Assembly (NCBI RefSeq): GCF_057098645.1 | Contig: NZ_CM169472.1 | DNA length: 64,000 nt | Reading direction: 5' to 3' (one strand) | Part shown: in pieces, positions 49,631 to 49,819 of the stretch | Layout of the letters: each line of letters starts with the position of its first letter | How positions within the stretch are numbered: the stretch's first letter is position 1 | Notes under the pieces: model-generated | What the model saw: only the letters and a program-made list of their open reading frames with translations | The model's database searches: none | What the model was told of the DNA's origin: nothing | Position numbers and translations under genes: made by a program

Positions 49631-49765
49631 TTATCTCCTGACGCCTGGGCAAAAAAAAGCCCCTCGATTGAGGGGCTGGGAATGGGTGATCAACGGGAAG
49701 AAAAACGGCAGGCCAGCGTCTTTTTTCAGACGCGGTAAGACAAAATGTCGAACACACTGAACCAT
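49631..49765 (-). CDS. pyrL: pyrBI operon leader peptide PyrL
   Basis: 44 aa MVQCVRHFVLPRLKKDAGLPFFFPLITHSQPLNRGAFFCPGVRR ending inside the attenuator. Confidence 0.85.
   Translation of the reverse strand: MVQCVRHFVLPRLKKDAGLPFFFPLITHSQPLNRGAFFCPGVRR
49649..49680 (-). terminator. pyrBI attenuator (rho-independent terminator in leader)
   Basis: On the minus strand: cccagcccctcaatcgaggggc hairpin followed by tttttttt just upstream of pyrB. Confidence 0.75.
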
Positions 49766-49790
49766 ACATCCTCCCGGCAAATTGTCCGGC

Positions 49791-49819
49791 ATTATACTCA
49801 TCGTCAGAAGCGGTGCAAG
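49791..49819 (-). promoter_or_regulatory. pyrL-pyrBI core promoter (-35 cttgca, 17-bp spacer, -10 tataat)
   Basis: Read on the minus strand; perfect TATAAT at 49791..49796 and TTGCA-type -35 at 49814..49819; IS2 end lies 8 bp upstream. Confidence 0.5.

Follow-up and report, generated by a model that had tools for sequence, protein, structure and literature searches.

The closest described counterpart of the locus reported here is the pyrLBI operon of Escherichia coli K-12, for which both the attenuation mechanism (PMC10135430, PMC5021804) and reiterative transcription at the start sequence AATTTG (PMC7039003, PMC6245113) have been described. UTP-sensitive control of the latter type is also known from codBA, upp, and carAB P1 (PMC6245113). 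Like pyrL, carAB P1 serves the pyrimidine pathway and joins a T-tract start to an upstream PurR box and sites of the ArgR type. The arrangement of these sites differs between the two promoters: the PUR box of carAB P1 lies at -128.5 and is accompanied by ARG boxes, whereas the PurR box of pyrL has its center at -66.5, directly next to a single ARG-box-like sequence.

For the region upstream of pyrL in K-12, a PurR ChIP-chip peak has been reported at pyrL-pyrB-pyrI, with no motif assigned there, and PurR is listed as directly repressing pyrL, pyrB, and pyrI when adenine is added (Cho et al. 2011, PMC3159470). EGRIN 2.0 places overlapping PurR (-79) and ArgR (-94) elements upstream of pyrL, counted from the pyrL ATG, and these elements are said to have been confirmed by independent ChIP-chip (Brooks et al. 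2014, PMC4299497). The literature search turned up neither a footprint nor a mutational test for the PurR site of pyrL. Wilson and Turnbough (1990) reportedly observed effects of PurR on pyrC and pyrD and little effect on pyrBI. The response of pyrBI to adenine seen in MG1655 could be an indirect one, mediated by nucleotide pools. A text search of the literature did not reveal the location of the minor upstream promoter P1, which is reportedly physiologically insignificant.

Here we analyze a pyrLBI locus within a 64,000-nucleotide stretch of DNA, referred to below as the window. The classical control region is unaltered in this stretch; a recent IS2 insertion at -45/-44 very probably leaves UTP attenuation in place and would uncouple the upstream operators. 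The attenuator, IS2, and the upstream PurR/ArgR sites are all already known, and the attenuator is essentially the K-12 element itself. What sets the window apart is a private insertion lying between the upstream operators and the core promoter with its leader.

Results and Discussion

Core Promoter, Leader, and Structural Genes

The minus strand of the window between 49560 and 49920 is the classical E. coli pyrLBI control region, which we number from the A at 49783 as +1. All features of the operon and of its former upstream region lie on this strand. The -35 hexamer of promoter P2, TTGCAC (49813-49818), is followed after a 16-bp spacer by the -10 hexamer TATAAT at 49791-49796 (-13 to -8), which is the same in every pyrL locus aligned. 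The initially transcribed region, AATTTG (49778-49783), is the site of UTP-sensitive reiterative transcription, in the role described in PMC7039003. The whole segment from the -10 hexamer through the 7-bp intervening sequence to the start region, TATAAT-GCCGGAC-AATTTG, is identical to that of K-12 pyrBI, with the T3 tract at the spacing that defines reiterative transcription (PMC7039003); relative to this type of control, the upstream context alone differs. Only 3 of the 6 bases of the -35 hexamer agree with the consensus, giving P2 9 of 12 overall. A standard consensus promoter scan misses the real P2 on account of this poor -35 match, so the silence of such a scan is weak evidence, and a relaxed scan was added.

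Downstream of the start, the Shine-Dalgarno sequence GGAGG of pyrL can be read directly at 49770-49774, 5 nt ahead of the ATG. The leader open reading frame, 44 codons plus TAA (49631-49765), passes through the attenuator and ends 3 nt ahead of the pyrB ATG (49627). PyrL matches the Pfam family PyrBI_leader (PF08052) over positions 1-44 of 44 with 117 bits (cut-off 25), and it matches the NCBIfam equivalog NF007587, "pyr operon leader peptide", over its full length with 120 bits (cut-off 61). Directly downstream of the attenuator are pyrB (48692-49627), encoding the 311-residue catalytic chain of aspartate carbamoyltransferase (Pfam OTCace_N and OTCace), and pyrI (48218-48679), encoding the 153-residue regulatory chain (Pfam PyrI and PyrI_C). 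Both genes are full length with the expected domains. The pyrB gene is identical to that of E. coli O145 strain RM9872, as is the DNA of pyrI.

Two hairpins within pyrL appear in both the minimum free energy and the centroid structures of the leader, which folds with -49.4 kcal/mol (z = -2.4). The first, GCGUCU-GAAAAA-AGACGC (49716-49733), has the same sequence as in K-12 and corresponds to the "hairpin pause" mapped in the K-12 pyrBI leader (PMC10135430). The second is the attenuator, an intrinsic terminator at 49650-49677. Its stem, AGCCCCTC-AATC-GAGGGGCT (49677-49658), comprises 8 GC-rich base pairs closed by an AATC loop and is followed by U8 (49657-49650), all of it inside pyrL and 22 nt ahead of the pyrB ATG. 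Two of the stem pairs show compensatory changes among Escherichia, Trabulsiella, and Edwardsiella. An initial annotation of this DNA had described the pyrL leader and attenuator as intact, and every element that it named is found on the minus strand at most 3 nt from the position given; the terminator, annotated as 49649..49680, is found at 49677-49650, an agreement within 3 nt.

An Rfam search returned no family covering the pyrL leader. The Chlorobi-1 and Hrs1 matches were rejected: both score well under the threshold, lie on the opposite strand, and simply echo the terminator hairpin. Elsewhere, in the mgtA-ridA intergenic region (window 47607-47679), sub-threshold Rfam matches to naRNA4 and ES036 mark a REP-type palindrome.

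Comparison with K-12 and IS2-Free Relatives

The window aligns collinearly with 4,424,932-4,485,483 of K-12 MG1655. Gene order, the 44-residue PyrL, the leader hairpin, the attenuator, and the U8 tract are the same in both, and no base differs between -30 and pyrB. Over 49443-49827, a single difference separates the two sequences, at 49814 (-31), the fifth base of the -35 hexamer, which is A here and G in K-12. K-12 thus has TTGCGC and native intergenic DNA beyond -45, whereas the window has TTGCAC and IS2. The A at 49814 is common to IS2-free O157 and O145 strains and is a lineage polymorphism.

The segment 49400-49827 shows 100% identity to the annotated pyrB/pyrL of many IS2-free genomes, O157:H7 and O145 strains among them. 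RM9872 has the genome closest to the window across its full length, with 99.96-99.99% identity, and IS2 is the sole structural difference between them. A Shigella origin, to which the presence of IS2 had pointed, is rejected on this comparison. No mismatch to this IS2-free strain occurs in 43709-49827 or in 51159-57775, that is, over about 6 kb on each side of IS2. The stretch from -16 to pyrB is unvarying across K-12, O157, LF82, N50, and 2018-02-2CC, save one substitution in N50. Alignment to the reference revealed no mutation in the hairpin or in pyrL, the kind of change named beforehand as speaking against an intact attenuator.

The same architecture, a leader reading frame of 40-48 codons running into a hairpin and U-tract, is present in Escherichia, Trabulsiella, Mangrovibacter, and Edwardsiella. 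In a fifth genus, Enterobacillus, the sole locus ends just past the start of the leader reading frame, and its attenuator falls outside the sequence. The pyrL loci whose upstream regions were aligned had been retrieved only through a 19-mer spanning the -10 hexamer and start region.

Several other differences from K-12 were observed along the window. At 3059-4801, a ytfA-like TetR-family pseudogene contains a 1.7-kb insertion, for which the RM9872 annotation gives a frameshifted IS200/IS605 tnpA and an InsQ/TnpB RNA-guided endonuclease gene. The cybC-nrdG interval (about 36679-37103) contains a segment absent from K-12, where RM9872 has a RelB/DinJ-family antitoxin gene with no adjacent toxin annotated; cybC itself is intact in the window and a pseudogene in K-12. 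The yjgL-argI region (54559-57314) is only about 91% identical to K-12, with many indels, and the O145 lineage has a 1668-nt "hypothetical protein" gene where K-12 has the 1815-nt yjgL. In the holC-pepA interval (62655-62950), a 96-bp unit of REP/BIME-type palindromes is repeated 3.1 times in tandem; K-12 apparently has fewer copies.

The IS2 Insertion

IS2 occupies 49828-51158 on the plus strand (1331 bp), with its left end (IRL) toward pyrL and the overlapping reading frames orfA (49919-50284) and orfB (50242-51147). Its sequence is 100% identical to an annotated IS2 elsewhere, and its reading frames match the NCBIfam models "IS2 repressor TnpA" and "IS2 transposase TnpB", both over their full length. 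With its ends forming imperfect terminal inverted repeats, the element shows all the defining features of IS2 (IS3 family). It is flanked by two copies of the pentamer TTGAT, the left at 49823-49827 (-44 to -40) and the right at 51159-51163, after which the former upstream DNA resumes at 51164. In the empty site of RM9872, TTGAT is present as a single copy, and the two IS2 flanks overlap by exactly 5 bp. Because of this 5-bp duplication and the single-copy empty site, the event is a simple transposition between -45 and -44 of P2, with no deletion or replacement.

The statement in the initial annotation that the upstream promoter context had been replaced by IS2 is thus not borne out: the former upstream DNA survives intact, moved outward by 1336 bp. 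Its description of the promoter as complete holds for the core (-35, -10, and start) and fails for the conserved upstream block of PurR- and ARG-box-like sequences, which IS2 has displaced.

The IS2/pyrL junction (GGGGGCCAGTCTAATCAAATGCTTGCACC) was missing from all 5,426 complete E. coli genomes searched, and an exact junction 36-mer was found in none of the GTDB species representatives and in no metagenome contig. The transposition appears to be recent and private to one strain, on a chromosome of the O145:H28 type. The absence of the junction from all these collections, together with flanks that otherwise match RM9872 fully over about 6 kb on each side, might also be taken to mean that the IS2 copy is an assembly artifact or a laboratory-passage event rather than a natural feature of the strain. 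We consider this highly improbable: a complete element of 1331 bp bracketed by an exact 5-bp duplication marks real transposition rather than misassembly.

Only one other IS2 lies near pyrL among the 5,426 complete genomes, in E. coli 2018-02-2CC. This copy, at 3167-4497 of locus L002 in the yjgH-pyrL neighborhood, is likewise 1331 bp long with its left end toward pyrL. It differs in position, being inserted at -283 from the P2 start, in the 3' end of yjgH, which it truncates, whereas the IS2 of the window is at -45. In 2018-02-2CC, the PurR/ArgR block therefore stays joined to the promoter, whereas in the window the two are parted. The 2018-02-2CC copy is an independent insertion.

An insertion so close to a promoter could also supply transcription of its own. 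IS elements are able to activate neighboring genes, and one weak outward-facing pair is present inside IS2 (TTAAGA-17-GATACT, 49886-49858, 8 of 12 consensus positions). If transcripts from within IS2 read outward into pyrL, part of pyrBI expression would skip the AATTTG control and still meet the attenuator. We regard such a contribution as quite improbable. The outward-facing -35 of IS2 sits at its right end (IRR), and it is the left end that faces pyrL. The standard scan of both strands over 49400-50100 revealed no promoter-like site, and hence no new one at the junction. In the relaxed scan of 280 nt for outward-reading promoters, the best candidate was the native P2 (9 of 12), followed by the weaker IS2-internal pair.

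The Displaced Upstream Block

The PurR-box-like sequence AGTAAACCGTTTGCGC is now found at 51178-51193, about 1.4 kb upstream of the start; its ancestral position is -74 to -59 (center -66.5). Directly adjoining it is the ARG-box-like core TGACTTATAATTCA (51194-51207, ancestral -88 to -75), which has one mismatch, the LF82 counterpart being the perfect form TGAATATATATTCA. An ARG box is defined as an 18-bp sequence with a TGAAT-N4-ATTCA core, usually paired with another 3 bp apart; inspection by eye of the DNA upstream of pyrL gave no convincing partner at that spacing. The PurR operator is defined as a 16-bp imperfect palindrome with a central CG, like ACGNAAACGTTTGCNT. In the window, unlike at carAB P1, IS2 separates these pyrL sites from their promoter.

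To score PurR sites, a position matrix was built from the 28 sites listed by Cho et al. 2011 (PMC3159470), which themselves score 11.8-24.9 bits. With 16.3 bits, AGTAAACCGTTTGCGC is the top match in the whole 64-kb window and falls within the range of the published sites. In simulations, a match of at least 16.3 bits occurs in 35% of 64-kb windows, so the score is not significant by itself at the scale of the window, and we discarded it as stand-alone evidence. Within any given 100-bp interval, the expected number of such matches is about 0.0007 (0.425 × 100/64,000). Since the matrix score alone is weak, the argument for the PurR box rests on its position, its conservation, and the ChIP data.

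Conservation was examined in the pyrL loci of five genera. In 17 of 17 loci, the best PurR match within 200 bp upstream lies at -74 to -59 or at -78 to -63, with 8-17.7 bits, and three chance-match control loci score at most 2.4 bits. The upstream alignments show conserved blocks beyond the insertion point, while the spacer and the -35-proximal DNA diverge. The block corresponding to window 51164-51210 (ancestral -45 to -91), aligned in loci L009-L025 from Escherichia, Trabulsiella, Mangrovibacter, Enterobacillus, and Edwardsiella, consists of the PurR-like box, the ARG-box-like core directly next to it, and, at -48 to -42, the motif TGCAT(C/T)A. This last motif is conserved in Escherichia, Trabulsiella, Mangrovibacter, and E. 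hoshinae; IS2 splits its TGCATCA form. The insertion also supplants an AT-rich stretch at -54 to -47, lowering the AT content of -60 to -45 from 0.62 to 0.38.

The gene neighborhood upstream of pyrL varies among E. coli strains. In B2-type strains such as LF82 (L008, NC_011993.1), an arginine-repressor-like gene, yfcC, and argF are directly upstream, and N50 (L007) lacks yjgH, bdcA, and bdcR upstream of pyrL. Megablast homology to the window stops at about -84 in LF82 and about -17 in N50; the PurR-like box is still at the same position.

The published K-12 data can be placed on the same coordinates. After conversion with a verified offset of 1977, the ChIP-chip interval reads 4,472,450-4,472,586 in NC_000913.3 numbering and stops 24 bp short of the PurR box. 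This gap may explain why no motif was assigned there. The -79 and -94 positions of EGRIN 2.0 land within the PurR-box-like and ARG-box-like sequences described here.

These observations bear on whether the insertion has any regulatory effect. It may be neutral, the upstream PurR/ArgR sites having no measurable effect on P2 and pyrBI being regulated as in the IS2-free relatives. The core promoter and leader are intact, an upstream position is unusual for a site in the PurR regulon, and the upstream PurR box of carAB P1 is powerless to repress alone. In addition, the published ChIP interval excludes the box and came with no motif, and a matrix match this strong is not rare by chance. We nevertheless judge a neutral outcome to be somewhat unlikely. 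The box keeps the same position in 17 loci of 5 genera amid diverging spacer and -35-proximal DNA; PurR-dependent expression of pyrL, pyrB, and pyrI has been reported, as have PurR/ArgR elements at these very positions. Such conservation implies some function, although not necessarily on P2.

Consequences for Pyrimidine, Purine, and Arginine Control

UTP-sensitive attenuation and the separate UTP-sensitive control by reiterative transcription should both be kept, because all their cis elements are downstream of -35 and unchanged. By analogy with K-12, high UTP would cause RNA polymerase to stutter on the T3 tract of AATTTG and release abortive AAUUUn transcripts. Polymerases that escape would cross the U-rich leader quickly, outrun the ribosome on pyrL, and be stopped by the attenuator. 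When UTP is low, the polymerase would instead pause, allowing the pyrL ribosome to catch up into the attenuator region, which would block the hairpin and permit transcription of pyrBI. The expectation in the initial annotation that attenuation still operates is supported to this extent, as the sequence comparison gives no ground for its failure.

Upstream of the core promoter, IS2 is predicted to take everything beyond -45, namely the PurR box, the ARG-box-like site, and the AT-rich stretch, out of reach of the promoter. A loss of purine and arginine input to P2 is plausible, with a likelihood that at best approaches even. The main rivals to it are the neutral outcome considered above and a weakened basal promoter.

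IS2 may also have changed the basal strength of P2. In the stronger form of this proposal, contacts with the AT-rich -54 to -47 stretch and with TGCATCA are lost to the GC-rich end of IS2, P2 is substantially weakened, and pyrBI is under-expressed despite its intact attenuator. The -35 hexamer with only 3 of 6 consensus bases, the fall in AT content over -60 to -45 from 0.62 to 0.38, and the splitting of the conserved TGCAT(C/T)A motif are all consistent with such an effect. It is possible that P2 leans on upstream DNA more than has been assumed, given this poor hexamer, in which case the intact attenuator could be acting on far less transcription. Substantial weakening nonetheless appears unlikely to us. 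The literature searched describes no UP element or activator for pyrBI P2, the -10 hexamer is a perfect TATAAT, and the -44 to -36 DNA next to the -35 hexamer is kept thanks to the target duplication. Moreover, a strong pyrBI defect would be costly, and an isolate carrying one would be unlikely to last.

Returning to the loss of upstream input, we tentatively propose that the insertion has created a natural separation-of-function allele, in which the UTP-sensing parts are kept and the PurR/ArgR block at -59 to -88 is cut off. Aspartate carbamoyltransferase would then respond to pyrimidines only. We regard this proposal as somewhat less likely than not.

Implications

For annotation, the locus teaches that an intact promoter should be judged beyond its -35 and -10 hexamers. 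The upstream pyrL PurR/ArgR sites have so far been known from ChIP-chip and computational prediction alone. The IS2 allele, set beside relatives such as O145 RM9872 that lack IS2 here and are otherwise identical, offers a ready-made comparison for the role of these sites, and the same comparison addresses whether P2 needs upstream DNA for its full strength. If the proposed separation of function is correct, the cross-talk of purines and arginine with pyrimidine synthesis at pyrBI would be lost in this strain.
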